This document shows, piece by piece, positions 4,196 through 50,990 of a DNA stretch of 64,000 nucleotides; the first letter of the stretch is position 1; every line of letters begins with the position of its first letter. The position numbers and the translations under genes are program-made. The stretch is from Candidatus Bathyarchaeota archaeon (GTDB lineage: Archaea > Thermoproteota > Bathyarchaeia > Bathyarchaeales > Bathycorpusculaceae), in NCBI GenBank assembly GCA_963815095.1, contig CAWFFH010000008.1, positions 32,001 through 96,000 on the forward strand, read 5' to 3'. The notes beneath the pieces were generated by a model that did not search any database, was not told where the DNA came from, and saw only the letters and a program-made list of their open reading frames with translations.

Positions 4196-5791
4196 TTGAA
4201 CGCCCAAGTTGCCCTCAGAGAAATAATTGCAACATTGCTTTCTATGCCCTCGCCCACGCATGAAGACGTAAACCGCCTAAAAATCAAGGTCGCAGCAAAG
4301 TACCATTTAAAAGCTGTCCCCGCCAACGCCGATTTAATAACCGCATTGACCCCGACGGAAGCAAAAAAACTTTTACCTATTATTAGACGAAAAAATACTC
4401 GCGCCATCAGCGGCGTAACAGTAATCGCCGTCATGACTAAGCCTTATCCGTGTCCACAGCCTGAGCCCTGTGCTTACTGCCCCGGTGGACCCACCCAAGG
4501 CAGCCCCCAAAGCTACACAGGATATGAACCAGCCGCTTTGCGTGGAACCCAAAACAGTTTCGATCCATATGAACAAGTTAAAAGCCGCATACGCCAACTC
4601 ACAGCTATCGGGCACAAGGTGGATAAGGTCGAGTTAATCGTTATGGGCGGAACCTTCCCAGCCACTCCGATGGAGTACCAGACCTGGTTTATCCAGCGTT
4701 GCCTAGACGCCTTAACGGGAAAAACCTCTGCAAACCTGGATGAAGCTAAAGCGAATGCTGAAGTTAGCAAAACCCGCAACGTCGGCATAACCGTCGAAAC
4801 GCGGCCTGACTGGGCAAAACAAGTTCACATCGATGCTATGCTTGGCATGGGTGTAACGCGTGTGGAGATTGGCGTGCAGAATCCCGATGACGAAATTTAT
4901 CATCTTGTTGGAAGAACCCACACCGTTGCAGACGTAATTGAGGCCACGCAAATTGCTAAAGATTCGGGATTAAAAATTGTTTATCACTTAATGCCTGGAA
5001 TGCCTGGTTCTAATGCTGAAAAAGATATCGCTGCGTTCAAAAGAGTTTTTTCCAATCTAGATTTTAAACCGGATATGATAAAAATTTATCCATGCCTAGC
5101 CATTGCTGGAACCAAAGCCAATGAGTGGTTTCAGAAAGGCACGTTTGAGCCTTATACAACTGAACAAGCCGCCAACGTAATCGCGGAAATCAAAAAAACC
5201 ATTCCGCAATGGGTAAGAGTGATGCGTGTGCAACGCGACATTCCAGCCAGACTTATTTTGGCAGGCGTAAAAAAGAGTGATGTGCGAGAGCTTGCCCAGT
5301 CAAAACTTAAAGCACAGGGTAACCAATGCCAATGTATCCGGTGCCGAGAAGTGGGACACCGTTTGGAAGTTGACCACGTAAGGCCTGATTTGGAAAAAAT
5401 CAAAATCCTAACCCAACACTACGAAGCTTCGGGAGGTAAAGAATTTTTCATATCAGTCGAAGATCCAGAAAACAATGTTTTGTTAGGTTACTTGCGTATG
5501 CGTGTTCCTTCTGTGAAGGCTCACAGACCAGAAATCACTGCTATGCCCTCTGCAATTGTGCGGGAACTCCACGTTTACGGACAGCTTGTCCCAGTCGGAA
5601 AACACACCGCTGGCGCTTGGCAGCACAAGGGTTACGGACAAATTCTACTAAAAGAAGCCGAACGCTTAGCAGGAGAAGAACTTGGTCTGAAAAAGCTTTT
5701 AGTTATCAGTGCGTTAGGAACAAGAAGGTATTACATGCGTTTCGGGTACGAACGCGATGGAGTTTACGTTTCAAAAAAACTGGTGAATTAA
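4196..5791 (+). CDS. elp3: Elp3 tRNA U34 carboxymethyltransferase (radical SAM + GNAT)
   Basis: Motifs CPQPEPCAYCPGG, QSYTGYEPAA, ETRPDW, RVQRDIP, CIRCREVG, VRELHVYG, QHKGYG. Confidence 0.95.
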   Translation: MNAQVALREIIATLLSMPSPTHEDVNRLKIKVAAKYHLKAVPANADLITALTPTEAKKLLPIIRRKNTRAISGVTVIAVMTKPYPCPQPEPCAYCPGGPTQGSPQSYTGYEPAALRGTQNSFDPYEQVKSRIRQLTAIGHKVDKVELIVMGGTFPATPMEYQTWFIQRCLDALTGKTSANLDEAKANAEVSKTRNVGITVETRPDWAKQVHIDAMLGMGVTRVEIGVQNPDDEIYHLVGRTHTVADVIEATQIAKDSGLKIVYHLMPGMPGSNAEKDIAAFKRVFSNLDFKPDMIKIYPCLAIAGTKANEWFQKGTFEPYTTEQAANVIAEIKKTIPQWVRVMRVQRDIPARLILAGVKKSDVRELAQSKLKAQGNQCQCIRCREVGHRLEVDHVRPDLEKIKILTQHYEASGGKEFFISVEDPENNVLLGYLRMRVPSVKAHRPEITAMPSAIVRELHVYGQLVPVGKHTAGAWQHKGYGQILLKEAERLAGEELGLKKLLVISALGTRRYYMRFGYERDGVYVSKKLVN

Positions 5792-5792
5792 A

Positions 5793-7133
5793 ATGAGTCA
5801 AATTGAAGATTCAGGTTACAAAGGCGAGGCACTGCGCCTGCTAAAACAAGCCGACTGCAGCGTCGGAGACATTCTGAAAGTCATAAGCAAAGGCAAAACC
5901 TACGAGGGCATATTGATTCCCCGCTCAGGCGAGGGGACAGCCATCATTATCAAGATGAAAAGTGGCTATAATATCGGCATCCAAGCCTCCTCGGACATTG
6001 AAGTTGAAAAAATCGGGAAGGGCACCAAACCCACCTTCGCTTCACCGCCCATTCCCAAACAGAACCCTGCTTTACCCCACGTTGTTATCATGAGCACTGG
6101 CGGAACCATCGCTAGCCGAGTAGACTACCGCACAGGCGCAGTGCGCTCAGCGATTTCAGCCAGCGATCTATATGGCGTGGTTCCAGAGCTCGCTGACGTA
6201 GCAAGAGTTGACACAGAAATTGTTTTTAGTATTTACAGCGAAAACCTCACCCAGCAAAACTGGCAAGAACTGGCCATTAAGGTGGCAGAGCGCATCGAGC
6301 AAGGCGTGGATGGCGTTGTCATTGCGCATGGCACAGACACTATGGCTTACACATCAGCCGCTTTGAGCTTCGCACTGCAGAATTTGCCCGTTCCAGTTAT
6401 TCTCGTTGGGGCCCAGCGTTCTTCTGACCGCCCCAGCAGTGATGCAGCAACAAATCTGATTGGTGCAGTTAAAGCCGCTGGAGAAGCGCCCTTTGCCGAG
6501 GTTGGATTGGCGATGCATGAAACTGTCTCTGACACCGCAATCGTAGTTCATAGGGGAACAAAAGTACGCAAGTGCCACACAAGCCGAAGAGACACCTTCA
6601 AGGCGATTAACGGTTTTACCATTGCGAAAGTCAAAGATTTGCAAGTTACAATGCAAACTGACCAATACCCGCGCCGAGACCCCAAGAAAAAACTGGTTCT
6701 CAAACCTAATTTTAGCGAAAAAGTAGCGCTTGTAAAGTTCTATCCTGGACTCGACCCCGCTATCATTGACTTTTACGTTGAAAAGGGCATGAAGGGCATT
6801 CTGCTTGAAGGTTCAGGTTTAGGTCATGTCAGCAAATTCTGCTTTGACGCTATCAAAAACGCAGTGTCCAAAGGAGTAGTAGTTGCTTTAGCTTCCCAAT
6901 GCATCTGGGGTCGTGTAAACATGAACGTCTACGATACAGGACGCGATTTGCAATCATTCGGTGTTGTGCCGCTTGACGACATGTTCCCCGAAACCGGGCT
7001 TGTTAAACTCATGTGGGCTCTTGGACAAACGGATGATCCAAATGAAGCCGTCAAATTGCTGAAAACTAATATTGCAGGTGAATTCTCCCCCCGAACGCTT
7101 CCACAAGACAAAATCGTTGAAGGAGCACAATAA
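5793..7133 (+). CDS. gatD: Glu-tRNA(Gln) amidotransferase subunit D
   Basis: Motifs KMKSGYNIG, STGGTIASRVDYRTGAV, HGTDTM, GAQRSSDRPSSD, RKCHTSRRD. Confidence 0.97.
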   Translation: MSQIEDSGYKGEALRLLKQADCSVGDILKVISKGKTYEGILIPRSGEGTAIIIKMKSGYNIGIQASSDIEVEKIGKGTKPTFASPPIPKQNPALPHVVIMSTGGTIASRVDYRTGAVRSAISASDLYGVVPELADVARVDTEIVFSIYSENLTQQNWQELAIKVAERIEQGVDGVVIAHGTDTMAYTSAALSFALQNLPVPVILVGAQRSSDRPSSDAATNLIGAVKAAGEAPFAEVGLAMHETVSDTAIVVHRGTKVRKCHTSRRDTFKAINGFTIAKVKDLQVTMQTDQYPRRDPKKKLVLKPNFSEKVALVKFYPGLDPAIIDFYVEKGMKGILLEGSGLGHVSKFCFDAIKNAVSKGVVVALASQCIWGRVNMNVYDTGRDLQSFGVVPLDDMFPETGLVKLMWALGQTDDPNEAVKLLKTNIAGEFSPRTLPQDKIVEGAQ

Positions 7134-7134
7134 A

Positions 7135-9033
7135 ATGACCATCGACTACGCTAAAGTGGGCTTAAAAGTGGGTTTAGAAATCCACCAACAACTCAACGTC
7201 AACAGCAAACTATTCTGTAGTTGCCCTCCTGAACTCTTCAAAGAAAAACCCGAAATCACATTCCTACGGAGACTACGACCAACTCAGAGTGAACTGGGAC
7301 AGGTTGATCCTGCAGCATATTTTGAGTTCCAAAAGGGTGTAAAAATCCTCTACGAAGCCAACCACAAAAGCTCCTGTCTCGTCGAGATGGATGAAGAGCC
7401 ACCTCACCCAATTAACTTGGATGCGGTCGAAGTGGTCTTGACTGCTTCGTTAATGATGAATATGCAACCCGTCGACGAAGTTCATGTCATGCGTAAAACC
7501 GTTATCGATGGCTCAAACACTACGGGCTTTCAGAGAACGTGCATTATCGGTTTGGACGGTTGGATTAAGGTCGGCGAGAAAATTATCCCTATGCAAGCCT
7601 CGAGCTTAGAGGAAGATGCTGCTCGCAAAACTGGCGCCCAAGACGAAGGCAAAACCATCCGTTACCGCATCGACCGTTTAGGAATCCCACTCATCGAAGT
7701 TGCGACTGCACCCGTAATTTATTCGCCGCAAGAGGCACAAGAAGTTGCATTTGCAATTGGTAGAATACTTCGTGACACAGGCAAAGTTATGAGGGGTCTA
7801 GGCACAATTCGCCAAGACCTCAACGTCTCCTTACCAAACGGTGCCTTAATTGAAATTAAAGGCGTTCAGGAACTCGAATTAATTTCTACTGTCGTCGAAT
7901 ATGAAGTTCAGAGGCAGCTTGAGTTAATCGAAGTTAAAGAAGAACTTGCCAAACGCGGAATTAAACCTGAATCGCTCAAGCCCGAATATGTCGATGTCAC
8001 AGCAATCTTCAAAGACACTAAAAGCAAAGTTATCCGCAAAGCGGTCGACAAAAACCATAAAGTCTTAGCCGTCAAACTTTTGGGTTTTGCAGGTTTAACC
8101 GGTCGTGAATTGATGCCAAATTTCCGGTTAGGCTCAGAGCTGTCTGACCGCGCTAAATTCTGGGGTAGAGTCGGAGGAATATTCCACACAGACGAGTTGC
8201 TTTCTAACTATGGCATAACGCCTGCAGAGGTTGAAGCTGTACGCGAAGCAGTCAGTGCCAATGAAGCCGATGCTGTCGTGTTTGTTGCAGACACAGCTGA
8301 AAACACCCAAGATGCCCTCAAAGCAGTTGTAGAGCGGGCGCAAGAAGCCTGCACAGGCATCCCCGCGGAAACTCGAACTGCCAAAGACGACGGAACTACT
8401 CGGTACATGCGTCCACGTCCAGGCGCTGCAAGAATGTACCCCGAAACCGATATCCCCGCGCAACCCATAACAGAACAGATGGTGAACAAAATCTGTTCAC
8501 ATCTTCCCGAACCAGCCGACAAAAAGCTTGCCCGACTCATAAGACAGTATGGCTTAAACGAAAAATTGGCCAAACAACTCATCGACTCCGAATACCTCTT
8601 GCTCTTTGAAGATACCGCCAAAGCTGGCGCCGTCGCAGCATCCACCGTTGCAGCATTCTTGACCGAAACTATCAAAGCGCTCAAACGTGAAGGGATCCAA
8701 ACCGAAAATGTGACAGATAACCAAATCAGCTCCATTTTCAAATCCGTCGGCTCAGGAGAACTCGCCAAAGAAGCAATTTCAGAAGTGTTTAGTTGGCTTT
8801 CTAAAAATGAGGGCAAAACCATGCAGGATGCAGGTGCCGCTTTAGGTCTCAAAATGTTTACTGAAGCAGACTTAGCGCTAATTATCGATCGGATAATCGC
8901 TGCCAACAGCCAGCAAATCGAAAAGTTGGGCAAGAATGCTCAGGGGATGCTTATGGGAGCGGCAATGAAAGAAGTTCGTGGAAAGGCTAATCCTGAACTT
9001 GTAGGTAGACTTTTGCGGGAACGTCTAAAATAG
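7135..9033 (+). CDS. gatE: Glu-tRNA(Gln) amidotransferase subunit E
   Basis: Motifs GLKVGLEIHQQL, RRLRPTQSELG, IDGSNTTGFQRT, RGLGTIRQDLNVS, RPRPGAARMYPETDIP. ATG at 7135 directly follows the gatD stop. Confidence 0.97.
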   Translation: MTIDYAKVGLKVGLEIHQQLNVNSKLFCSCPPELFKEKPEITFLRRLRPTQSELGQVDPAAYFEFQKGVKILYEANHKSSCLVEMDEEPPHPINLDAVEVVLTASLMMNMQPVDEVHVMRKTVIDGSNTTGFQRTCIIGLDGWIKVGEKIIPMQASSLEEDAARKTGAQDEGKTIRYRIDRLGIPLIEVATAPVIYSPQEAQEVAFAIGRILRDTGKVMRGLGTIRQDLNVSLPNGALIEIKGVQELELISTVVEYEVQRQLELIEVKEELAKRGIKPESLKPEYVDVTAIFKDTKSKVIRKAVDKNHKVLAVKLLGFAGLTGRELMPNFRLGSELSDRAKFWGRVGGIFHTDELLSNYGITPAEVEAVREAVSANEADAVVFVADTAENTQDALKAVVERAQEACTGIPAETRTAKDDGTTRYMRPRPGAARMYPETDIPAQPITEQMVNKICSHLPEPADKKLARLIRQYGLNEKLAKQLIDSEYLLLFEDTAKAGAVAASTVAAFLTETIKALKREGIQTENVTDNQISSIFKSVGSGELAKEAISEVFSWLSKNEGKTMQDAGAALGLKMFTEADLALIIDRIIAANSQQIEKLGKNAQGMLMGAAMKEVRGKANPELVGRLLRERLK

Positions 9034-9114
9034 CGTTTTTTATGTTAAAAGAAGCTATTAGCCGCAAATCCTAAATGTTTTCTCAGAGTATAGTTATAGA
9101 CGAGGCTTTAGCCT

Positions 9115-9591
9115 ATGAAACGTATTGAAGCACGCATAAAAACTGGTTTTGGTGAAGTTGTAATTGAAGGCGAAAGCCCCCAAGACATAATGAATATGCT
9201 GGAATCAATTCCAGAAAATTTTGTTGAGAAACTCTCCGATTTTGTATCTAACCGATTAACCCCTTCAGGCGCGCAATTAAAAGGCATAATTGAACCTACA
9301 ACTGAAGGCCCAATAATAGTCACACGCGAGAACCTCACACACTATGAAGCAGTAGGGCTTGTGTTGTATGCTTCGGATGAGCGAAAAAACACCGCTGCGA
9401 TGGTTCAGAAGCTTTTGGAATCCAGCGGCATAAAAAGTATGGTGCCCGCCCGGCTCAATGAGATGACTAAAAGGGGACAAGTCTTCAAACCGGACCCCAA
9501 CAAACCTGAGTTCAAACTGACAATTCAGGGCGAAAAATGGGTAGAACAAGACGTTCTCTCCAAACTTAGGGGAAAGATGAGTGAGCGTTAA
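9115..9591 (+). CDS. Hypothetical protein, probable C-terminal winged helix
   Basis: Intact 158-aa ORF. Pattern ARLNEMTKRGQV...FKLTIQG resembles a wHTH recognition helix and wing. Paralogous to the next gene. Confidence 0.65.
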   Translation: MKRIEARIKTGFGEVVIEGESPQDIMNMLESIPENFVEKLSDFVSNRLTPSGAQLKGIIEPTTEGPIIVTRENLTHYEAVGLVLYASDERKNTAAMVQKLLESSGIKSMVPARLNEMTKRGQVFKPDPNKPEFKLTIQGEKWVEQDVLSKLRGKMSER

Positions 9592-15535: not shown

Positions 15536-16393
15536 TTAACGGGTTCTTGTTGCAAGGACAATGTATTGCGATCCGGTTGAGCGGAAAAATAGGTAGCCGC
15601 TGTCAGCGTATTCTTGCAGCTTCTGATTAATTCTTATTCCCACCCTGTCAGAGAACAACCGATAGCCAAAAAAAGTGAATGGTCCAAATCCTACACTTGC
15701 GCTTTTCACGACATTTAAACCTGCCTCGCAAAGATTATTGTTGAATGCTTTTGGAGTATATTGACTATAAGGTGGCGCATTGGTCCAGGGATTCCATGAA
15801 CTAAGTAACCCTGCTCTTTCAAGTTTACTCTTTATTAGCCATCGGACCTGTGCTATTGGTGGAAAAGTTTTGGGATCAAGTAATGTTGTGGCTCGTAATG
15901 CATTATCCATTGTCAGGACAATAAAACCGCCGGGTTTTGTGACTCTTATGATTTCAGTCAATGCCTTTTTGAAATCATGAAGCCAAGGGATTACTCCTAA
16001 AGCAATGATTAAGTCAAACGTTTGGTCCTTATAGGATAGCTCATGAATATCGCCTGTGCAAGCCCTGATCTTATCTAATAACCCCGTTTGTCTTGCATGT
16101 TCATTTGTTAGATCAACCATTGCTTGTGCATGGTCAATTCCTTCAATAAAAAATCCGCGCTTTGCAAGAGCGGCAGTCATGAACCCTGCTCCGCAACCGA
16201 TTTCAAGAACATGAGCAGTTCTTGGGAGCGATAATCCATCAATATAACTGAGGGCGACGGCCTGCCGCCTTTGATAAATTATTCCAGCAATGTCCTTCTT
16301 TTTGTACGTATCTCTCCAATATGTTGCCTGAGTATCGAAGAGTTCATCAACCAGCTTCTGCTGACGATCGTTTTGTGCTTTGGGTGAAGCCAA
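15536..16393 (-). CDS. Class I SAM-dependent methyltransferase
   Basis: Motifs VLEIGCGAG, GIDHAQAM, FDLIIALGV, RVTKPGG. Divergent from comA. Confidence 0.88.
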   Translation of the reverse strand: MASPKAQNDRQQKLVDELFDTQATYWRDTYKKKDIAGIIYQRRQAVALSYIDGLSLPRTAHVLEIGCGAGFMTAALAKRGFFIEGIDHAQAMVDLTNEHARQTGLLDKIRACTGDIHELSYKDQTFDLIIALGVIPWLHDFKKALTEIIRVTKPGGFIVLTMDNALRATTLLDPKTFPPIAQVRWLIKSKLERAGLLSSWNPWTNAPPYSQYTPKAFNNNLCEAGLNVVKSASVGFGPFTFFGYRLFSDRVGIRINQKLQEYADSGYLFFRSTGSQYIVLATRTR

Positions 16394-16537
16394 TTAGCAA
16401 ACATCCCCTACTTCCCAACTATCGATAATCATCATGGCTTTAAACTATTCTTTGTTACTTCTTGACTCTATCCTTTTGTTCCTGAATCTATAGATAATTT
16501 TTTTGTAAATGCGTGTTTCCATCTATGGTGATAAAAC

Positions 16538-17371
16538 TTGATTGATTCTTTTCCTTCTTTAAATTTGCCACGAAAAGGGCAACTACATACCGATGCTTAT
16601 CTAAAATCGATCGGTGTTCCCGAAATAACTTCAGCGACCAGCCCGTTCGACCCTGGATATGATGCCTTAACGTTGGCGGGTCATCTTGAACAAAGTCACC
16701 ATCTTATATCGATTCTGAAGGTTTCAATGGCGTGTTGGATGATTGCAAACGAAGATGTTACTCGTCAGAAAATTGCAGTTGCTAAGAAATACCGCGTGCC
16801 CACAACTACGGGCGGCGGACCTTTTGAGGTAGCGTATGTGCAAGGTAAGCTACAGCAATACCTTGATCTTGTGGCCGATTTTGGATTTACGCGGATAGAA
16901 TGCGGGGAGGGGTTCACAGATATTTCCTTAGACGCTCGAGAGATTGTGAAAATGGCAAACGACCGTGGCTTAGAGGTTCAGTTTGAACTTGGGAAAAAAC
17001 ATACGGGCGCTTTTACTAAAAATGTAGTTGAAGCTTTGATTAGCCAAGGTGAGCGGTGGCTTGAGGCTGGAGCCGTTCAGTTGGTTGTAGAGGCGCGGGA
17101 GAGTGCGAAGGGCGTTGGGTTGTTTGATGATGAAGGGAATCTTAATGTTGGTTTCGCTGATCGTTTCGCAAATGCGTTTGGCCACAGTGTGGTCATGTTT
17201 GAAGCACCTAACAAGCCAAGTCAATTTGCTCTGTTAGATCACTTCGGTCGCCACGTTCATCTATGCAATGTTCGCCTTGAAGAGTTGTTGCGGGTGGAAA
17301 TTTATAGGCGAGGCCTTCACTCAGATGCTTTTAACAAAGAGAATTTGCGTCCCCATCTTCCGGTGGAATGA
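16538..17371 (+). CDS. comA: Phosphosulfolactate synthase-like protein (ComA family, divergent)
   Basis: Motifs FELGKK, AGAVQLVVEARES, FEAPNKPSQ, VHLCNV, EIYRRGL match the ComA TIM barrel. Confidence 0.85.
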   Translation: MIDSFPSLNLPRKGQLHTDAYLKSIGVPEITSATSPFDPGYDALTLAGHLEQSHHLISILKVSMACWMIANEDVTRQKIAVAKKYRVPTTTGGGPFEVAYVQGKLQQYLDLVADFGFTRIECGEGFTDISLDAREIVKMANDRGLEVQFELGKKHTGAFTKNVVEALISQGERWLEAGAVQLVVEARESAKGVGLFDDEGNLNVGFADRFANAFGHSVVMFEAPNKPSQFALLDHFGRHVHLCNVRLEELLRVEIYRRGLHSDAFNKENLRPHLPVE

Positions 17372-17396
17372 AGCGGTATTAAGGAGAAGAGAGGTT

Positions 17397-18110
17397 ATGA
17401 GCAGAAAATCAGTTGCTATAGATTGTCTAAGCGAGAGTCTATGTCATTATGATGAAAGATGTGCGGTCATAGTTATCGATGTTATTCGTTCAATAACTGT
17501 AGCATCCACGATAGTTGAATCTGGAAGAAGATGTTTTTTTGCTCCTTCGATTGAGGCGGCATTTCTTTTTGCAAAACAGTTTGACAATCCGTTGCTGATT
17601 GGTGAAATGGGCGGGAGCATGCCCTATGGTTTTGACATTAATAATAGTCCGGTGGAAATTGAAAGCCGCAAAGATATTTTGCGACCTGCAATTCTGGTTT
17701 CTTCATCGGGGATACCGCTGCTTTATTCGTTGAGAGATTGCAATTCAGTTTACGTTGCTTGTCTTCGGAATTATAGTGCAACCATCAAGCATCTCGCTGG
17801 ACTTTACAATCGAGTAATAGTTCTTGGTGCCCCAACCCGGGGAGAGTTTCGTGAAGAAGATAAACTGTGTTGCGCACGGATTGCAGCTGGCCTCATCAAA
17901 GCTGGATATGCTTCTGAAGATGAAAAAACCACGGAGATTGTAAATCGTTGGGCAGAAAAGCCAGTTACGGTTTGTGGTGAAGGGAAAAGTGCTGAGTATC
18001 TCCGAAGATCTGGTCAAGCAAAAGACCTTGATTTTATTCTCAGCCACGTGAACGACCTTAACTCGCCACTTAAGATTAAGAACAATGAGATTGTTAAAAC
18101 ACCGGTTTAG
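17397..18110 (+). CDS. comB: 2-phosphosulfolactate phosphatase-like protein (ComB family)
   Basis: Motifs VIVIDVIRS, GEMGG..PYGFDINNSPVE, CLRN, EEDKLCCA. GAGGT precedes the ATG at 17397. Confidence 0.85.
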   Translation: MSRKSVAIDCLSESLCHYDERCAVIVIDVIRSITVASTIVESGRRCFFAPSIEAAFLFAKQFDNPLLIGEMGGSMPYGFDINNSPVEIESRKDILRPAILVSSSGIPLLYSLRDCNSVYVACLRNYSATIKHLAGLYNRVIVLGAPTRGEFREEDKLCCARIAAGLIKAGYASEDEKTTEIVNRWAEKPVTVCGEGKSAEYLRRSGQAKDLDFILSHVNDLNSPLKIKNNEIVKTPV

Positions 18111-18117
18111 TCGCGGA

Positions 18118-19365
18118 GTGGAAAAGACGGTTAAACGTGAAAAGGTTACTGCAGAAGATACGAGCGTTCCAGTTGTCGTATTGTACACTTACCACTATGG
18201 TCAATTAGGCGTCTTGCGTAGTTTTGGAAGGCTCGGCATTGTAGTTCATGGTGTTGATCCAAATCCGCGGTCTCCCGGTCTGTTTTCCAGATATTGTCAG
18301 AAAAAATTCTTGTTTGATATAGACGCTGCACCCTCCCGCGCTTCTGTTCAATACTTATTAGATGTTGCCAAGAAAATTGGAAAACGTTCACTTCTGATTC
18401 ACACAACCGATAGTGGTGCAGGGTGGCTTGCAGACAACGCTGAAGCTTTGAGTGAAGGATACATTTTTCCGAAGCTATCTTCTCAGCTTGTTTTAGCTCT
18501 TGCCAACAAAAAAGAGATGTATTTTCTTGCCAAAAAGTATGGTGTTCCAACTCCCGAGGCGTGCTTTCCACTTTCGCTAAGCGATGTTGAAGAATACGTG
18601 AAGGATGCAGTTTTTCCGGTAGTTTTAAAGGAGCTTTATCGTGGAGGGTCACCCCGAGTTGGAAAAAGAATGTTCGTGGCAAAAACGAAAGCTGAACTTC
18701 TCAAGTTTTATAGCCAATGCGAAGATTCTTCGAACCCAAATTTTATGTTACAAGAGTATATTCCAGGTGGGGATGATTCGATTTGGATGTTTAACGGTTA
18801 TTTCGATGAAAAATCGGATTGCCTTTTTGGAATGACTGGACGAAAAATTCGTCAATCTCCCATTCATACTGGTGTGACCTCGCTTGGTGTTTGTTTGAAA
18901 AACCCATTAGTTGATGAAATGACGAGGCGCTTTATGAAAAGTATTGGTTACAAGGGGATTCTTGACATCGGATACAGGTACGATTTGAGAGATGGAAAGT
19001 ACAAGGTTCTCGATATTAATCCTCGTATAGGTTCAACTTTTCGGCTCTTTGTAGGCGCTAATGGGTTAGATGTTGCCCGCGCCCAATATTTAGATCTCAC
19101 TGGTCAATCAGTTCCTTCAAGTGAGCTTATTGAGGGGCGAAAATGGTTTGTTGAAGACAGAGATTCTGTTTCGAGTTTTCGGTATCACTATGAAAAAAGT
19201 CTAACCTTTAAACACTGGTTAGCATCATTTCGTGGCGTCCAAGAGAGTGCTTGGTTTGCTTGGGATGATCTTTTGCCGTTTTTCATGATGTGCGCCAAGT
19301 CTTCAAGAAAAGTGCTTTCTAAAGCAGACAATAATGCGTTAAATCCGTACAAACTTACTCCTTAA
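18118..19365 (+). CDS. ATP-grasp carboxylate-amine ligase (D-aspartate ligase-like)
   Basis: Motifs LGVLRSFGRLGI, SRY, NKKEMY, FPVVLK, QEYIPG, RKIRQ, YKVLDINPR. Starts 8 nt after the comB stop. Confidence 0.85.
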   Translation: MEKTVKREKVTAEDTSVPVVVLYTYHYGQLGVLRSFGRLGIVVHGVDPNPRSPGLFSRYCQKKFLFDIDAAPSRASVQYLLDVAKKIGKRSLLIHTTDSGAGWLADNAEALSEGYIFPKLSSQLVLALANKKEMYFLAKKYGVPTPEACFPLSLSDVEEYVKDAVFPVVLKELYRGGSPRVGKRMFVAKTKAELLKFYSQCEDSSNPNFMLQEYIPGGDDSIWMFNGYFDEKSDCLFGMTGRKIRQSPIHTGVTSLGVCLKNPLVDEMTRRFMKSIGYKGILDIGYRYDLRDGKYKVLDINPRIGSTFRLFVGANGLDVARAQYLDLTGQSVPSSELIEGRKWFVEDRDSVSSFRYHYEKSLTFKHWLASFRGVQESAWFAWDDLLPFFMMCAKSSRKVLSKADNNALNPYKLTP

Positions 19366-19511
19366 ACTCTAAGGAAAACTCGCGAATCCTTTCTAAATGC
19401 TATAATTTAAGTTCTCTGTTTTCCTAATCTCTTCTTCTTATCAATTAAAGAACAAAAGTTATAATCCTCAACTAAGAATAATCTTTAACTTCAATTTATC
19501 TGGTGATTAAA

Positions 19512-20132
19512 ATGGTATTTGCAAAAAAAGTTGTGTTGGCGGTGGGAGCCCATCCTGATGATATTGAATTAGGGTCTGGCGGGACAATCTATAAAGCGGT
19601 GCAAGCAGGGGCGCATGTTATTGCTTTGTATATGACAAGGGGCGGAAAAATCACTGACACTAATGTAAGAATGAGAGAAAGCACTGAGGCCATGAACGTT
19701 TTGGGCGTTAATGAAGTCTTTTTTGAGAATTTCCCTGACACGGAGATTCCAGATTCATTTGAAGCCATAAACTGTTTAGAACAATACGCCCTCAAATACC
19801 AACCCGATATCGTGCTAACACACTCAATTAACGATATACATCAAGATCACCGAAGAGTAGCTTGGCTTGCAATGTCTTCATTTAGGAACATACCGAAAGT
19901 TCTTGCTTTTGAAACCCCTAGAGTAAGACCTGCGGCTTTCTTGCCTACTTACTTTGTAAATATAACGGGCAGTGTTGACAAGAAATGGGAAGCCCTGCGA
20001 TGCCATGTTTCTCAAAACGAGAAAAGATATCTAGCATACGAATCCACAGTTAATCTTGCTTCTTTTAGAGGGAGCCAGGTTGGTATTGCTGCGGCAGAAG
20101 CCTTTGAAATTGTAAAATATGTAGAAGGCTAA
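19512..20132 (+). CDS. PIG-L/LmbE family N-deacetylase
   Basis: Zn-binding motifs AHPDD and HSINDIHQDH, plus HVSQ and AEAF. Confidence 0.9.
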   Translation: MVFAKKVVLAVGAHPDDIELGSGGTIYKAVQAGAHVIALYMTRGGKITDTNVRMRESTEAMNVLGVNEVFFENFPDTEIPDSFEAINCLEQYALKYQPDIVLTHSINDIHQDHRRVAWLAMSSFRNIPKVLAFETPRVRPAAFLPTYFVNITGSVDKKWEALRCHVSQNEKRYLAYESTVNLASFRGSQVGIAAAEAFEIVKYVEG

Positions 20133-20471: not shown

Positions 20472-21467
20472 TTGCAAACGAATAAGTTGAAAGTGGCAGT
20501 GGTTGGAGTAGGTAAGATGGGCTTAGTGCATGCTAGTATTTTTAACACTCTGCCCAATGTTGAACTTGTTGCATTATGTGATAAGAGTACTTTGATACGT
20601 AAATTCTGTAGTAAACTATTGTCTGGAGTTCATATAGTGGATGATATAACGAAAATATCTGACTTAGACATTGACATAGTTTGTGTAACTACCCCCATTC
20701 CTTCTCATTACTCAATTATCAACAGCTTCTGTTCCACCAAAAAGGCACCAAATATGTTTGTTGAGAAAACCCTTTCTTCTTCCTATTCAGATTCTGCAAA
20801 ACTGTGCGAATTGGTTCGGAATTCAGTAAGCGTTAACATGGTTGGTTATATGAAGAGGTTCGCCGTTACGTTCATAAAAGCTAAAGAACTGTTAGAACAA
20901 GGTGCTATAGGATCTACGTATTCTTTCGAAGCACATGCTTATTCATCAGATTTTTTTGGCCTAAAAAATAATCCTTCACATGTGACGTCGAGCCGGGGAG
21001 GCGTTCTTAGTGATTTGGGTTCACATGTTATTGATCTTAGTTTATGGTTTTTCGGAGATTTACAGGTTCAAACCGACCAGATCGATGCAAATGATATTCA
21101 AAACGCAGTAAAGTTTAAAGTCGCAAGCGGTGCCTCTGTTGATGGAATTTTTGATGTATCTTGGTGCAAGGAAGGTTATCATGTGCCAGAATTTGGGTTA
21201 TTAATCACCGGTTCTAAGGGTAAAATAGAGGTCGATGATGATGTAGTTGAGTTGTCGCCCGCTTCAGGACAATCAATCCGTTGGCATAGACATGACCTTA
21301 ATGATAATGTAGGTTTCTTACTCGGTGCTCCGGAATATTTCCGAGAAGATGATTATTTTGTTAAATCAATTTTGAATGGCGCTACTGCTGAACCTAGTTT
21401 TGCTACCGCTTCAAAAGTTGATTATGTAATCGAAAAGGTATTTGATGGAGCTAAAAAAAATGAGTAG
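20472..21467 (+). CDS. Gfo/Idh/MocA family NAD(P)-dependent oxidoreductase
   Basis: Motifs VVGVGKMG, FVEK, VGYMKRF, GGVLSDLGSHVID. Confidence 0.88.
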   Translation: MQTNKLKVAVVGVGKMGLVHASIFNTLPNVELVALCDKSTLIRKFCSKLLSGVHIVDDITKISDLDIDIVCVTTPIPSHYSIINSFCSTKKAPNMFVEKTLSSSYSDSAKLCELVRNSVSVNMVGYMKRFAVTFIKAKELLEQGAIGSTYSFEAHAYSSDFFGLKNNPSHVTSSRGGVLSDLGSHVIDLSLWFFGDLQVQTDQIDANDIQNAVKFKVASGASVDGIFDVSWCKEGYHVPEFGLLITGSKGKIEVDDDVVELSPASGQSIRWHRHDLNDNVGFLLGAPEYFREDDYFVKSILNGATAEPSFATASKVDYVIEKVFDGAKKNE

Positions 21468-22353
21468 GAAACAACCGATTTTGCTGGTCGGGGACAATCC
21501 ATTTCATGGTATTAGCCATCTTTCTCAACAAAATGTTAAAAATAGAGGAACTGACGTTACCAGGGCAAAATACGCTTCTGACATTGTTAAAACCTCAATC
21601 GAAAATGGCGCCAATGGATTCATGTTTTCAGTAAGCGAAACAACTCTCTCAATACTAAATATGCTCCCTGAAAAGGAGCCGAAAAAACGGCTGCATCTTT
21701 ATGCACTTGTCCCTTATGCTTACGAATATGTTAGACTGGCCACTCATGAAGGGGGTCTTCCAGGATTGGCAAAGCGCTTTGCTAAAGAGGTATTGCGATC
21801 GGGAAATTTGAAAACTGTTGGTGTTGGATTAAAGGGTGTCTTGACGTCTGATCCAATTGATGTTATGAAAGCCTATCTTTCATATGAAATTATTAGAGTT
21901 AAAGCTTCTGCAAAGAATCGAGGTGTTTTGCGTTCTGTTTTGCTTCACGAAGTAATTACTGATATGGCTATAGCTCTCAATCTTGAAAGCTTGGTTAAGT
22001 CCTACATTAAGTTTATGAATGACCATGGAATAGAACCTGGATTTGAGACGCGCAATTTTTCCTATCTTGTGAAGAAGTTTAAAGAATGGGATATAGATTT
22101 TAAGGGAATAGTTCTGGCAGCTCCGTTTAACAAAATAGGTTTCTACATGAACCCTTCTAAGGATGAGTGTGAAAAGTCGCTTGCCGATGTTTCTGGGGGC
22201 ACTGTGATTATGATGAGTATTCTGGCGGCAGGTTACTTGAAACCCAAAGAGGCTATAGATTACGTTCTTGGGCTTCCAAATGCTAATGCAGTTGTTGTAG
22301 GCGTATCTAATGAGAAGCAGGCGCGTGAAACATTCAGTCTTCTTGGAACCTGA
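21460..22353 (+). CDS. Conserved archaeal hypothetical protein, possible aldo-keto-reductase-like TIM barrel
   Basis: Motifs LLVGDNPFHGISHLS, PFNKIGFYMNP, MSILAAGYL, VVVGVS resemble the AKR-fold C-terminus. Overlaps the oxidoreductase stop. Confidence 0.55.
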   Translation: MSRKQPILLVGDNPFHGISHLSQQNVKNRGTDVTRAKYASDIVKTSIENGANGFMFSVSETTLSILNMLPEKEPKKRLHLYALVPYAYEYVRLATHEGGLPGLAKRFAKEVLRSGNLKTVGVGLKGVLTSDPIDVMKAYLSYEIIRVKASAKNRGVLRSVLLHEVITDMAIALNLESLVKSYIKFMNDHGIEPGFETRNFSYLVKKFKEWDIDFKGIVLAAPFNKIGFYMNPSKDECEKSLADVSGGTVIMMSILAAGYLKPKEAIDYVLGLPNANAVVVGVSNEKQARETFSLLGT

Positions 22354-22442: not shown

Positions 22443-23669
22443 ATGACCTCTATTACTCTTTGCATGCTTGCTCCAGAATTTATTCCTGTCTGGGGCGGAA
22501 CAGGATCATATACTGTTGAATTGGTTAAGTCTCTCCCAAGCACTATGGATATTCATGTAGTTACACTGAAGCGTGACGTAGGTCTCTCCGCAAGAAACTC
22601 TTCTATCGATAATAATGTAGATGCAATAGTGAAAAGGTCTCTCAAAGTCCATTATTTGACCAAGTCTAGTGAGACATTTTTCTATAATCTTCCTTTTCAA
22701 CTTGCTTGTACCGCAAAAATTCCGGTACTTCACAAGAAGTTCGGCTTTGACATTATGCATTCGCATATGTGTCAGATGCCTGATGTATATTTAAAACTGC
22801 TAAATCAGCTGAAAATTCCGACTGTTGTTACTATTCATGGAACGATTCAAATGCTAAGAGATCATGCGATAATTGCACGCGATTTGTTTCATGATTTGGA
22901 ATCTGGTGAGAAATCTATTCTGCGTTTCTATCCAGTAATTAGTCAACTACAACAATTATACGTAAAAAGGGTATCCCGGTTTATTGCAGTTTCCAAAAAA
23001 ACTAAGGAGTTAGCTGTGGAACATTTTGGCGTTGACCCGAGCAAAATTAGTTTAGTATACAATGGTGTTGATGTTAATCTATTTCGAATGCCTGATGAAT
23101 CTGAACTTCTCAACAGGTATTCAAGCCCAAAAATTGTATACGTTGGGCGAATCATTTCCAAAAAAGGTATAGATATCCTCATCAAAGCGATGCCTGAGAC
23201 TTTGAAATCTTTTCCACATGCCTGTTTTGTATTTGTTGGAGGCGGTAACATTTCCCTCTACAAAGAAATGATAAAAAATAAAGGCATATCTGAGAAAAAC
23301 TATCTGTTTACAGGTCATATGGGTTATCTCGAACGAGCAAAAATATTCCGTGAAGCAACAGTATTTGTAAATCCTTCTTTTTTTGAGAACTGTTCCATTA
23401 GCATTCTTGAAGCAATGAGCAGCGGTTGTGCAGTCGTAGCAAGTAATGTAGGTGGCAATCCAGAGCTTATCCAATCTGGAAAGAATGGTTTATTGGTACG
23501 TGCATTTGATGATAAAGAGTTTGCAAGAGCGATAATTTCACTTCTAAAAGATGAGCATCTGAATAGAATAATTGGAGAGGAAGCAAGAAAAACCGTCGAA
23601 AGATCTTTTTCATCAACAAAATGTGCAAAAGACACATATGAAGTCTATAGACAAACCCTTGATTCATGA
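22443..23669 (+). CDS. GT4 glycosyltransferase
   Basis: Motifs PVWGG, YNGVD, YVGR...KG, ENCSISILEAM, NVGGNPE. Confidence 0.9.
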   Translation: MTSITLCMLAPEFIPVWGGTGSYTVELVKSLPSTMDIHVVTLKRDVGLSARNSSIDNNVDAIVKRSLKVHYLTKSSETFFYNLPFQLACTAKIPVLHKKFGFDIMHSHMCQMPDVYLKLLNQLKIPTVVTIHGTIQMLRDHAIIARDLFHDLESGEKSILRFYPVISQLQQLYVKRVSRFIAVSKKTKELAVEHFGVDPSKISLVYNGVDVNLFRMPDESELLNRYSSPKIVYVGRIISKKGIDILIKAMPETLKSFPHACFVFVGGGNISLYKEMIKNKGISEKNYLFTGHMGYLERAKIFREATVFVNPSFFENCSISILEAMSSGCAVVASNVGGNPELIQSGKNGLLVRAFDDKEFARAIISLLKDEHLNRIIGEEARKTVERSFSSTKCAKDTYEVYRQTLDS

Positions 23670-23757: not shown

Positions 23758-24771
23758 GTGAGTAAATTAGTTATGGCTGAAAACAATAGCAATTCTCTTG
23801 AAACTCCAGCCATAAGCGTCATTGTGGCAACGAGGGGCGACAAGTTAGATTTCTTGAAAAACTGTCTTTTGTCACTTAAAAATCAGAAGTTCAGAAACTT
23901 TGAAATTATTGTAGTTTCAAAAAGGTTTCCAAAAGAACTAGAAGATTTGTTTGAAACCGAGAATATCAGATTTATTGAGGAAAAAGGATCGACATTAGGC
24001 GCCGCCAGAAATTTAGGGGTTATAAACGCTAAAGGCGAACTGGTTTCATTCATTGATGATGATGCAGAAGCCTCGGTTGACTGGCTTGGAAAAATATCTA
24101 AAACTTTTTCATCTTTCCCTTCATTGACTTCCTTAGGCGGACCACACTTTACACTCCAAGAAAAAACCAAAAAAAGTCCTTTAAATTATTTTGAAGGTTT
24201 GTTTTTTGAAGGTAATTCCCAAGTAACATATTTTGATAAATCAGCAATTGGGAAGATAGCTGGCTGCAATGTGACGTACAAGAAGTCTGTCTTTCTAGAA
24301 ACGGGCTGTTTGAACGAGCAATTGCGAACTTGTGAAGATTGGGATTTTAATAGACGGCTAGTTGAAAAAGGATACAGTTTACGTTATGATCCAGAAATTT
24401 GGGTTTTGCATCGTAGACAGGGCCTAAAGCATGCCTTCCAAGGCAGTTCAAGAAGTGCGCCGTTTTTCTTGTCAAGGAAGACTCTTAAACTTGCAAGATA
24501 CGAATCAATGATTGCCTACTTCTATGTAACGAATTTTCTTTTTATTTTGCTTCTTGTTATTCTGATCATTTCGCCATTGTTTTTTGTCTTGTTTTTCCTT
24601 ACAATTTTAGGTGGATATATAATATTTAATGCAGTGAGAACACATACTTATAACCGTAAAATTTTGTATTTTCCGTTAGTAATTTTATTTACAGGCGCGA
24701 GAATATTAGGTTTCTATTTTGGCTTGATCAAGTATGTGGCCTCAAAATTGCGTACTTCTTTTAAGCGATGA
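23758..24771 (+). CDS. GT2 glycosyltransferase with C-terminal TM helices
   Basis: Motifs ISVIVAT, ARNLG, FIDDD, GCN, EDWDF. Confidence 0.88.
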   Translation: MSKLVMAENNSNSLETPAISVIVATRGDKLDFLKNCLLSLKNQKFRNFEIIVVSKRFPKELEDLFETENIRFIEEKGSTLGAARNLGVINAKGELVSFIDDDAEASVDWLGKISKTFSSFPSLTSLGGPHFTLQEKTKKSPLNYFEGLFFEGNSQVTYFDKSAIGKIAGCNVTYKKSVFLETGCLNEQLRTCEDWDFNRRLVEKGYSLRYDPEIWVLHRRQGLKHAFQGSSRSAPFFLSRKTLKLARYESMIAYFYVTNFLFILLLVILIISPLFFVLFFLTILGGYIIFNAVRTHTYNRKILYFPLVILFTGARILGFYFGLIKYVASKLRTSFKR

Positions 24772-24887: not shown

Positions 24888-26015
24888 ATGCACGTTTGTA
24901 TGATTTCACGAGAATTTCCTCCTGTGACAGGTGGAATAGGCTATTTTGTTTATAATCTCTCAAAAGGGCTAGTCAAAAGGGGTCATAACGTTTCGATTAT
25001 TACTCGTGGATCTACTGGTAAAGTCGAGAAAAAATTGATAGACGGAATTAATGTATATAAAGCTACTTTCTTTCCGTTATATCCTTTTCATATGGCGTTG
25101 CATGGGTTCTTTGTTAATTCTCTTCTTAATTCTTTAAGTCCTGAGGTAAGCTTAGTTCATTTACACTCACCTTTAACTCCAAAAGTTAAGACTTCTTTAC
25201 CGGTAGTTATGACTGTTCATACCGCTATGAGGATTGACTCGAGGTATCATGAGGTAGTAGATCCTTACTCATTGGCGGAAAAAGTGCAATCGATGTATTT
25301 TTCGCCCCTTCTTGAATCTCAACTGTTAAGAATTTCAGATATAGTGACTGCTGTTTCTCCTTCCGTTGCTAATGAATTGACCGAATACGGAATAGATTCC
25401 AGTAAAGTTAAAGTAATGTGGAATGGTGTTAATGAAAAATCTTTTCCAACCAATAAAAATGAGAAATTGGAAAAATATGTATTGTACACTGGTGTATTGC
25501 GTGCTCGAAAAGGGCTTTTTGATTTAATTAAATGTGCAATCATAGTAAGTAAAATAATACCTGATGCAAAATTTGTTATTTGTGGTACCGGTCCTCTTCT
25601 TCAAAAGTTAAAGGAACAAGTTAAGAGCGCTGGGCTTGAACAGAAAGTAGTTTTCTTAGGTCGCGTAGATAGAAAGAAACTCATTAAAATATATCAAGGT
25701 GCTACGATATATGTTGTGTCTTCTATTTATGAAGGTCTTCCAACAGTTATTCTAGAAGCGATGGCTTGCGGTTTACCAGTTGTAGCCACTGATATAGGAG
25801 GCAATCGCGACTTGATTTCTTCTAATGTAAATGGGCTATTAGTTCCCCCCAGATCTCCTGAGATAATGGCACAAATGATAATGGAATTGTGGAATGATGA
25901 AAAATTGAGGAAGAAACTCGGCGATTGTGCTAGGAAAACTATTATGAAAAAGTACACATGGGATATGATAACTGACAATTTCATAAACGTTTACGAGTCC
26001 CTTCTCAAAAAATGA
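24888..26015 (+). CDS. GT4 glycosyltransferase
   Basis: Motifs EFPPVTGG, WNGV, RKG, EGLPTVILEAMACG. Confidence 0.9.
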   Translation: MHVCMISREFPPVTGGIGYFVYNLSKGLVKRGHNVSIITRGSTGKVEKKLIDGINVYKATFFPLYPFHMALHGFFVNSLLNSLSPEVSLVHLHSPLTPKVKTSLPVVMTVHTAMRIDSRYHEVVDPYSLAEKVQSMYFSPLLESQLLRISDIVTAVSPSVANELTEYGIDSSKVKVMWNGVNEKSFPTNKNEKLEKYVLYTGVLRARKGLFDLIKCAIIVSKIIPDAKFVICGTGPLLQKLKEQVKSAGLEQKVVFLGRVDRKKLIKIYQGATIYVVSSIYEGLPTVILEAMACGLPVVATDIGGNRDLISSNVNGLLVPPRSPEIMAQMIMELWNDEKLRKKLGDCARKTIMKKYTWDMITDNFINVYESLLKK

Positions 26016-39214: not shown

Positions 39215-40365
39215 GTGTCCGTCCAGGAAGTGCGCTTAGCTCAAGACTTGAGAGACTATCTTCGTGACACTTCGCGTAACGGTATTTCGAAATTGATACC
39301 AAAGATGCTCATACAATTAGGGTTTCGAATGTCCTAAAGATTGGAGGTGGGTTTTGGAGTGATGTATTCTCCATATCTCTTACTTATATGGACGGAACAC
39401 CCTCAACACCGTAATCTTGTCTTGAAAACTTATCTCGTGAACATCGATCCTGTGATGAAAGCATATATTCATGATGAAGACCTTAGGAAATGTGTAAGAG
39501 AATTTCAGGCTCTAAAAAGTCTTAAGAGAATTGGTTTTCCTGTCCCAGAAGTATACCTTTGTGAGTGTGATTCCCGTTTTCTTGGTTACCCTTTCGTAAT
39601 AATGCAGAAAGAAGAAGTGACTCAAAAAAGCATCAATGAGATAGTGGATAGCTTTGCCTCAACACTCGCAAATCTTCATAATCTCAAAGTGGCCGACTAG
39701 GAATAGCTGTTCTTAGAACTCCTAAAGACGGATATGCATTTGCGAGACGTTGGCCAATTCATTTCAAGCACTATTTGAATCTTGAAACCAAACATCCCAA
39801 AAGACTTAAAAAAGATTTTAATCTGGCAGTTCAATGGCTTAATTCAAATGTGCCGAACAACTATTGTCCACAATATTGTTTAGCTCACGGGGATTACCAT
39901 CCAGGTAACGTTTGTGTAACCAAGGATTCAAGGATGATTGTATTAGACTGGGACTCAATTGAAATTGGCGACCCAGCTTACGATGTTGGTTATGCTTATC
40001 ACTTTGTTAAATTTTTCAGTAACCCCAAAAATCCAAATTCTGCTCAGAGAACTGCCGAACGATTTGTTTCAGAATACAATAAGAATTTCGAAGGAGACAT
40101 TAGCCAGAGACTTGAATATTACAAAATGGTTGGACTCTTAGGGACATCCATTTACTACAGTTCGGGATTATCAAATCCCGTTTACGCCTACAAATATCAT
40201 CGACGCAAAGTTTTACCTACATTTCCTTTTCTCAGTGGGCTATTCATTCTACTCGGATTTCCATTTATTCGATGGCCCTCTGTTGCTCGGCAATTGGCAT
40301 CTGAAGGGGATCTTCTTTGGTTAAAATATTATGAAAATTATCTTGAAGAAGCGTTAAAACAATAG
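39215..40365 (+). pseudogene. APH/choline-kinase-family phosphotransferase (paralog 1), frameshifted
   Basis: VREFQAL..GFPVPEVYL; HGDYHPGN; LDWD; GDPAYD. N-terminus from GTG at 39215 aligns with paralog 3. Confidence 0.8.
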
Positions 40366-40514
40366 ATTAGTCTGCCAAAATACAATAATTTTCTCAATAC
40401 CCATAATCGAAATTACAAAATCGATTAGGATTAAGTGTATGCGAAAAGGGAATCCGCAAAGGATAAGGGTTTATTTTTCTTGAGCGGAAGAATTGACGCT
40501 AAACTGAAATCTGG

Positions 40515-50922: not shown

Positions 50923-50990
50923 ATAAAGGTAGCTTGCTCCAATCAACTTATAAAGAAACAGGACTAAACAACGTAAATGGTCGATTCTTA

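Follow-up and report, generated by a model that had tools for sequence, protein, structure and literature searches.

Introduction

Why would genes of the ComA and ComB families, known from the coenzyme M pathway of methanogens, stand at the head of an archaeal glycosyltransferase island, followed by an ATP-grasp ligase and a deacetylase? The question is raised by a 64,000-nt stretch of a Candidatus Bathyarchaeota genome (assembly GCA_963815095.1, contig CAWFFH010000008.1, positions 32,001 to 96,000; hereafter the window), in which a ComA-like phosphosulfolactate synthase, a ComB-like phosphatase, an ATP-grasp ligase and a PIG-L family de-N-acetylase form a cassette with archaeal housekeeping genes on one side and a glycosyltransferase island on the other. 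A preliminary description of the locus had read these genes as an archaeal system in which sulfolactate is made and then coupled through an amide bond to an amino sugar, freed of its N-acetyl group, in a surface glycan. The cassette is real, widely conserved and undescribed, and brings known kinds of enzyme into a new combination. It is most likely a module that makes sulfolactate and attaches it to surface glycans, of which the Bathyarchaeia carry a form with PIG-L.

Genes of the cassette

The cassette and its upstream flank comprise the following features, given in window coordinates.

15536-16393, minus strand: class I S-adenosylmethionine-dependent methyltransferase (Methyltransf_11, 79 bits), divergent from the cassette
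16394-16537: A+T-rich spacer of 144 nt between the divergent methyltransferase and ComA, the presumed promoter region
16538-17371, plus strand: ComA-like phosphosulfolactate synthase (PF02679, 166.8 bits), 277 amino acids (aa) from a TTG start
17397-18110, plus strand: ComB-like 2-phosphosulfolactate phosphatase (PF04029, 105.8 bits)
18085-19365, plus strand: ATP-grasp ligase, 426 aa, with a weak CPSase_L_D2 match
19503-20132, plus strand: PIG-L family de-N-acetylase (PF02585, 93.2 bits)

The four cassette reading frames are all intact and lie on the plus strand. The ComB frame is open from 17268, and its ATG at 17397 leaves a gap of 25 nt to ComA; the ligase has a GTG at 18118, 7 nt after ComB, a start consistent with the 415-aa length of a database ligase that is 97% identical to it. 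PIG-L begins 137 nt 3' of the ligase. The preliminary description had reported this tight spacing, together with a PIG-L after the ligase, a glycosyltransferase island and a divergent methyltransferase, and all of these were located where it had placed them. Within the ligase gene, a 178-aa open reading frame (ORF) runs antisense (18146-18682, minus strand); "shadow" ORFs of this sort cluster across high-G+C loci, and this one is most likely not a gene.

The ComA domain covers positions 11-243 of the 243 positions of the PF02679 profile (Pfam cut-off 25.2 bits), and the protein aligns over its full length with M. jannaschii ComA (1qwg; 121 bits), with which it shares the motifs EARES.KG.GLFD, FEAP.K and RRGL..D. 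Residues K61, E121, E150, E185, E222 and D263 are invariant among 20 sequences, including a 19%-identical paralogue, and are probably catalytic. As judged from its sequence, the single ComA of the host genome would convert phosphoenolpyruvate (PEP) and sulfite into 2-phospho-3-sulfolactate. ComB, also far above its Pfam cut-off (26.4 bits) and with relatives in the Protein Data Bank (PDB; 2z0j, 1vr0 and 2yyv), would release sulfolactate from this product. PIG-L likewise exceeds its Pfam cut-off (28.2 bits), and its top NCBIfam match is BshB1 (92.6 bits, E 2.9e-26), below the cut-off of 182.5 for that model.

Conservation of the ComA-ComB-ligase unit

Gene neighborhoods were surveyed from three anchors, namely the ligase (best 80 of 211 matches, 45-97% identity), ComA (best 80 of 233 matches, 67-98% identity) and PIG-L (52 loci); the first two sets overlap in contigs and are not independent samples. 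The ligase-anchored loci span the Bathyarchaeia, one Methanomicrobiales metagenome-assembled genome (MAG) and more than ten bacterial phyla, and they contain ComA in 65 cases and ComB in 66; the two occur together in 63, for the most part in the order ComA-ComB-ligase and in a single direction. Reciprocally, ComB accompanies ComA in 79 of the 80 ComA-anchored loci and the ligase does so in 72, with four of the eight loci that lack it lying at contig ends. The linkage of ComA, ComB and the ATP-grasp ligase is far beyond chance, and the neighborhood survey of ComA homologues that the preliminary description had proposed as a check returned it in both directions, often in glycan loci.

PIG-L is present in 9 of 11 and 11 of 13 Bathyarchaeia loci, and none was found in the bacterial triad loci of the ligase- and ComA-anchored surveys. 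The PIG-L-anchored survey identified 14 Bathyarchaeia loci with a PIG-L at least 60% identical to that of the window, the ligase lying directly upstream in ten of them; the other 38 loci, whose PIG-L is less similar (chiefly Bacteroidota, 24-35% identity), yielded no cassette genes. The core of the cassette is a three-gene unit, to which PIG-L is a lineage-specific fourth member. Methyltransferase homologues occur near the triad in 27 of the 80 ligase-anchored and 44 of the 80 ComA-anchored loci, making the methyltransferase a frequent fifth member, and in the Bathyarchaeia it is always divergent and upstream.

All 160 listed loci (the best 80 of 211 and the best 80 of 233) come from MAGs, with no isolate genome, and this MAG-only occurrence among the matches listed may be the reason why the chemistry has gone unseen. 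Ligase homologues at loci without ComA and ComB adjoin AMP-binding, acyl-adenylate-forming enzymes (L074, L084, L087 and L094), which suggests that ligase sub-clades of this kind use other acids.

Coenzyme M synthesis

The window holds no coenzyme M genes beyond comA and comB. Profile searches of the 2.69-Mb host genome, which is 98.45% complete, gave no match to the alpha subunit of methyl-coenzyme M reductase (MCR; PF02249), with both methanogen controls positive, none to ComC (Ldh_2; five controls positive) and none to ComD (sulfopyruvate decarboxylase alpha, TIGR03845; controls positive). Coenzyme M synthesis was rejected as the role of the cassette because the genome is without mcrA, ComC and ComD, and the absence of these genes that the preliminary description had noted in the window extends to the genome as a whole. 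Nor do ComA and ComB reach the score levels of the canonical enzymes: ComA scores 170.1 bits against the archaeal equivalog TIGR03849, whose cut-off is 280, and ComB scores 74.4 and 70.2 bits against NCBIfam equivalogs with cut-offs of 235 and 175.

The ATP-grasp ligase and its acceptor

The AlphaFold model of the ligase, obtained from a 48-sequence alignment (predicted local distance difference test score, pLDDT, 91.4), has a classical three-domain ATP-grasp fold when compared with PDB structures. Its structural matches include 2pn1 (Z 28.6), an uncharacterised structural-genomics protein, PurK (26.4), an L-amino-acid ligase (24.6), PylC (24.3) and PurT (24.1), all at 10-18% identity, and D-Ala-D-lactate ligase chains at Z 18-19. 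PurK, PurT, the L-amino-acid ligases and PylC form C-N bonds, which supports an amine acceptor. Residues K142, K182, Q223, E224, D310, N312, R314, R45, R320 and R352 are invariant in the 48 ligases, and by analogy K142, K182, E224, D310, N312 and R314 presumably bind ATP or Mg.

The NCBIfam match of the ligase is "carbamoyl phosphate synthase-like" (45 bits); among Pfam families only CPSase_L_D2 and ATPgrasp_Ter were matched at E<=0.01, with no match to the TupA-like ATP-grasp family; and a search of the PDB returned weak biotin-carboxylase-type matches (E 8e-4 or weaker) and no characterised close relative. At E<=1e-10 the clade numbers at least 3839 proteins in the database, under the automatic names "D-aspartate ligase" (JGI) and "carboxylate--amine ligase" (NCBI). 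On the proposed reading, the ligase would activate sulfolactate for coupling to an amine that PIG-L has freed.

Deacetylases adjoin the ligase beyond the Bathyarchaeia. A PF01522 polysaccharide deacetylase, of a family unrelated to PIG-L, abuts it with a gap of at most 410 nt in six bacterial loci (L042, L056, L065, L080, where it does so twice, L091 and L097), one of which, L080, pairs it with the ligase in the absence of ComA and ComB. Furthermore, an operon on a Priestia megaterium plasmid, set among spore-coat genes, encodes a PIG-L, a GT4, an ATP-grasp enzyme and a phosphotransferase, with the ligase homologue 28% and the PIG-L 29% identical to those of the window. This locus (L238; NC_017139.1, P. 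megaterium WSH-002 plasmid) spans 4992-9189, its ATP-grasp enzyme is named "carbamoyl-phosphate synthase", and 36 of the 40 plasmid matches are in Priestia; the strains that carry the operon can be cultured. The presence of a ligase-adjacent deacetylase in three settings (Bathyarchaeia, bacteria with PF01522, and Priestia) fits an amine freed from an N-acetyl sugar, and the GT4, PIG-L and ligase logic, known from bacillithiol and mycothiol synthesis and applied here with another ligase family, supports a ligase that re-acylates a de-N-acetylated sugar. DegT aminotransferases, found in seven ligase-anchored loci, were also counted toward an amine acceptor. The pairing with a deacetylase that the preliminary description had noted holds in the broader sense that the ligase has three unrelated or distant deacetylase partners, while PIG-L itself is confined to the Bathyarchaeia cassettes.

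Glycan context

In the Acidobacteriota, the triad lies inside a Wzx/Wzy-type polysaccharide operon, which runs in the order AAA-PEGA protein, BcsQ-like ATPase, NusG-like factor, Bac_transf priming transferase, (methyltransferase), ComA, ComB, ligase, Wzx-like protein, APH-like kinase and Wzy; the protein that follows the ligase is a 467-aa multi-pass membrane protein resembling Wzx flippases. A labelled glycan gene is present in at least 42 of the 63 loci with a complete triad. Recurrent neighbors in the ligase-anchored loci include PF01522 polysaccharide deacetylases (12 loci), a second ATP-grasp enzyme (11), LarA-type racemase homologues (10), UDP-glucose dehydrogenase (8), epimerases (8), AMP-binding enzymes (7), AsnB-type amidotransferases (4) and sulfotransferases (4). 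LarA-type enzymes are 2-hydroxyacid racemases, and their homologues in ten loci are consistent with a 2-hydroxy acid intermediate.

Sulfotransfer_1 or Sulfotransfer_3 genes stand directly beside the triad at loci L048, L077, L090 and L100, mostly in Actinomycetota MAGs, and sulfation and sulfonation are possibly combined in one product at such loci.

Distribution and origin

The cassette had been presented as an archaeal system, a view that the survey corrects: the cassette is not specific to archaea and is mostly bacterial. In a quick maximum-likelihood tree of 48 ligases, rooted at its midpoint, the window sequence groups with four Bathyarchaeia sequences (support 100); the next set (98) adds the Methanomicrobiales MAG, another Bathyarchaeota and an Ignavibacteriaceae sequence, and is sister to an Acidobacteriota clade (87), the remainder of the tree being bacterial. 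The archaeal copies would hence be nested inside bacterial diversity, as far as this quick tree can tell, and the window ComA is 79-82% identical to ComAs of Ignavibacteria and Bacteroidota. The pattern suggests transfer between bacteria and archaea, in either direction.

A ComA is found in 15 of the 81 genomes of the host genus: nine have the cassette type and six one that is very different. Among the former, the ligase is in three to four pieces, one with an in-frame TGA, at G022:C10:43162-44387 and at L185 (G044:C11); in G044, ComB and PIG-L are also in pieces, and ComA and the methyltransferase are whole. These split genes reflect either decay or long-read frameshift errors. The second ComA type (PF02679 207-218 bits; for example L181:8517-9353, minus strand, in G052:C7) is about 25% identical to the window ComA and lies near a PrpD/MmgE-family protein, a flavin mononucleotide-dependent dehydrogenase with a rubredoxin domain, SdhA/B-like genes and citrate synthase, with neither ComB nor a ligase nearby.

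Genomic setting

The closest public relatives of the host are peat and soil MAGs of Candidatus Bathyarchaeota/Bathyarchaeia. The first 14 kb of the window carry archaeal housekeeping genes (GatD/GatE, ELP3, RIO2 kinase and PyrI), and about 14.6 kb into the window begins a long island of lower G+C that encodes glycosyltransferases, methyltransferases, APH-like and FemAB-like proteins and a DegT aminotransferase. At least nine glycosyltransferase ORFs lie in the island headed by the cassette. The genes that follow PIG-L on the plus strand, and a group of island ORFs further downstream, are listed below.

20472-21467, plus strand: GFO/IDH/MocA oxidoreductase, sugar 3-dehydrogenase-like (PF01408, PF22725)
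21442-22353, plus strand: 303-aa protein with a triosephosphate isomerase (TIM)-barrel pattern, without Pfam or NCBIfam family
22443-23669, plus strand: GT4 (Pfam)
23758-24771, plus strand: GT2 (Pfam)
24888-26015, plus strand: GT4 (Pfam)
39775-41666, 50273-50854, 50934-51761 and 55496-56482: APH-like and FemAB-like/Acetyltransf_6 ORFs

The oxidoreductase, encoded after PIG-L in 5 of 11 Bathyarchaeota loci, scores 76 bits against the UDP-N-acetylglucosamine 3-dehydrogenase model, below its cut-off of 450. It overlaps the gene of the 303-aa protein by 26 nt, and the pair is conserved in the same proportion of loci. The 303-aa protein has at least 2132 relatives named "hypothetical"; its model (pLDDT 79.4) shows an eight-fold beta/alpha pattern with weak Foldseek matches in the PDB, and a similarity, at rank 25, to the DgpB-C-type proteins that partner GFO oxidoreductases is a lead only. 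The GT4-GT2-GT4 order after the cassette recurs in the Bathyarchaeia loci L022/L186, L024/L188, L025/L187 and L029/L198.

Three APH-like ORFs lie in the island, two of them short C-terminal pieces that are possibly fragments, and no relationship was detectable between the APH-like genes of the window and the APH-like kinases of the Acidobacteriota and Priestia operons. There are also two FemAB-like/Acetyltransf_6 genes, a family seen in 3 of 76 ORFs scanned near other triads. Rfam and tRNA scans of the 64-kb window gave no matches, and a sequencing-run search returned nine DNA-type runs, none with at least half of the sampled words, and no RNA run.

Proposed pathway and alternatives

In the proposed pathway, ComA would join sulfite to PEP, giving phosphosulfolactate, from which ComB would strip the phosphate to leave 3-sulfolactate. 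The ATP-grasp ligase would then turn the carboxylate of sulfolactate into an acyl phosphate and transfer the acyl group to an amine, which in the archaeon most probably belongs to a glucosamine-type sugar: an island glycosyltransferase would attach N-acetylglucosamine (GlcNAc) to a precursor carried on a lipid or nucleotide, and PIG-L would then remove its acetyl group. Deacetylation and acylation would both be cytoplasmic, preceding export, and the divergent methyltransferase may methylate the product. From the genomic evidence we infer the ComA substrate, sulfolactate as the acid used by the ligase, the amide linkage, and what the acceptor is and what carries it. The balance tips modestly toward an amide link between sulfolactate and an amino sugar, stripped of its N-acetyl group, in a glycan borne on a lipid or nucleotide. 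The fuller picture is more tentative and falls slightly short of an even chance: many uncultured bacteria of soils and sediments, joined through transfer by some Bathyarchaeia, would bear surface glycans with an N-sulfolactyl group, possibly O-methylated, whose C-bonded sulfonate derives from PEP and sulfite, so providing a third anionic-sulfur route and a previously unseen sink for sulfite.

Several observations weigh against this proposal. The host genome gave no match to PAPS/APS reductase (PF01507), for which 14 of 14 control genomes were positive, nor to NIR_SIR sulfite reductase or ATP sulfurylase, so that no recognisable route to sulfite was found in the host. Its three rhodanese domains, on contig C3, can only speculatively be related to sulfite. 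The scores of ComA and ComB below their equivalog cut-offs count in the same direction. A glycan context is common for the triad and not universal: 21 of the 63 complete triad loci, about a third, have no labelled glycan gene, and a scan of 76 ORFs from 16 of these loci added two matches to GT2 families and two to flippase families; the same ORFs included five sulfotransferases, four LarA homologues, four methyltransferases and three ABC ATPases. One of the three labelled amine-making families lies within 8 kb in only 25 of the 80 ligase-anchored loci, and members of the ATP-grasp superfamily are also able to work as kinases or ester-forming enzymes. The cassette is an accessory one in the genus, present in 9 of 81 genomes with some copies looking decayed. 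The glycan-modification reading of the preliminary description is partly supported, with every genomic test that it had proposed in its favor on the one hand, and on the other about a third of the complete triads lacking a labelled glycan gene and no sulfite-making genes matched.

Other explanations account for parts of this evidence. The cassette could make a soluble thiol or solute akin to bacillithiol or mycothiol with sulfolactate as its aglycone, a GT4 placing GlcNAc on the 2-hydroxyl of sulfolactate, PIG-L deacetylating the sugar and the ATP-grasp enzyme adding an amino acid such as cysteine. In bacillithiol synthesis, BshA glycosylates malate and BshB deacetylates, and sulfolactate is a close analogue of malate; the BshB1 match of PIG-L, the matches of both window GT4s to the BshA and MshA models (102-116 bits), the GT4, PIG-L and ligase logic on Priestia plasmids and the existence of triad loci without glycan genes are all in keeping with such a compound. 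These scores are, however, typical of any GT4 or PIG-L (101.9 and 115.6 bits against 273.7 for BshA, as BshB1 is also well under its cut-off), and the conserved partner of ComA and ComB is the ligase, not GT4 plus PIG-L, the latter having been found in no bacterial locus. Together with the Wzx/Wzy operons that enclose the Acidobacteriota triad and the multi-glycosyltransferase island headed by the window cassette, this makes a soluble product distinctly improbable. The ligase might instead activate another carboxylate, that of a glycan uronic acid or of an amino acid, with sulfolactate forming an ester through its hydroxyl or being attached by another enzyme. In its favor, UDP-glucose dehydrogenase genes occur in 8 of 80 loci, the D-Ala-D-lactate ligases among the structural matches show that a 2-hydroxy acid can serve as nucleophile, and Cj1438C is an ATP-grasp amidoligase with a proven role on glycans (PMC11800379). 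An amide between sulfolactate and a uronic acid is impossible, however, as sulfolactate lacks an amine; genes for uronic acids occur in a minority of loci only, the ligase has no TupA-like family match, and the adjacency of deacetylases points to an amine nucleophile; a different activated carboxylate is on these grounds unlikely.

A related concern is that the ComA-like enzyme might use another nucleophile or substrate in this host, so that the attached acid would be a different three-carbon acid. The unmatched PAPS/APS reductase, sulfite reductase and ATP sulfurylase favor this, as do the distance between the ComA score and its equivalog cut-off and the second, divergent ComA type of the genus, whose central-metabolism context indicates functional spread in the family. 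Against it stand the retention of the motifs shared with M. jannaschii ComA, the presence of ComB beside ComA in 79 of 80 loci and the fact that sulfite sources can include environmental organosulfonates or thiosulfate; moreover, we know of no other described activity for PF02679, and a substitute acid seems slightly less probable again than a different activated carboxylate. Lastly, sulfolactate could accumulate as a free solute, as it does in the spores of Bacillus subtilis, whose genome, used as a control, was positive for ComA and ComB homologues, with the ligase and deacetylase serving the glycan island separately. A tight three-gene unit conserved reciprocally across phyla is hard to explain without a shared pathway, and a free solute is accordingly very improbable. 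If sulfolactate is indeed attached to a glycan amine, a C-sulfonated hydroxy-acyl group would be a new building block of microbial glycan chemistry and a third way of placing anionic sulfur on glycans, beside sulfation dependent on 3'-phosphoadenosine-5'-phosphosulfate and sulfoquinovose. The pathway would provide a function for ComA and ComB homologues of non-methanogens and a substrate class for the large ATP-grasp clade automatically named "D-aspartate ligase". Furthermore, the stable and strongly acidic charge thus placed on the surface of peat and soil organisms could influence how they bind metals, tolerate desiccation, adsorb phages and aggregate, surface chemistry would be coupled to the availability of sulfite, and a bacterial glycan-tailoring module would have been recruited into an archaeal glycosylation island.

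Comparison with known systems

No paper was found that reports a glycan with a sulfolactyl group or connects ComA and ComB with a ligase of the ATP-grasp kind, supplements lying outside the search, in agreement with the preliminary description, which knew of no described example. Judged by title or abstract, the listed papers on sulfolactate and glycans concern catabolism or other subjects, and a SAR11 paper mentions phosphosulfolactate synthase in connection with a transporter. The methanogen coenzyme M pathway, represented by M. jannaschii ComA (1qwg), uses the same two families in the same order; in the host genome, however, ComC, ComD and MCR are missing, the scores fall below the equivalog cut-offs and the ATP-grasp enzyme would take the place of oxidation and decarboxylation. 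B. subtilis YitD and YitC offer an instance of ComA and ComB acting outside methanogenesis, making sulfolactate as an end product or building block. YitD (1u83) is more distant (52.8 bits), and we know of no ligase linked to this pair, whereas in the cassette sulfolactate is presumably conjugated.

Bacillithiol and mycothiol synthesis (BshA/MshA, BshB/MshB and BshC/MshC) shares with the cassette the succession of a GT4, a PIG-L and an ATP-dependent re-acylation of a glucosamine amine. The window proteins differ in scoring below the cut-offs, in having a ligase that belongs to the ATP-grasp superfamily and not to the BshC/MshC type, and in their setting, a multi-glycosyltransferase island. The D-aspartate ligase of Enterococcus faecium, an ATP-grasp enzyme that couples a small acid with two negative charges to the amine of a nucleotide-sugar-linked substrate, is tied to the window clade only by the automatic JGI name. 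The closest functional precedent comes from the C. jejuni capsule, where the C-terminal domain of Cj1438, a TupA-like ATP-grasp enzyme, forms an amide on glucuronic acid (PMC11800379). Both systems have an ATP-grasp enzyme in a glycan locus and, for the cassette as proposed, an amide on a polysaccharide unit. Cj1438C belongs to another ATP-grasp family and works in the opposite sense, the sugar giving the carboxylate to which a small amine is added, whereas the ligase of the window is proposed to place a small acid onto the amine of a sugar.

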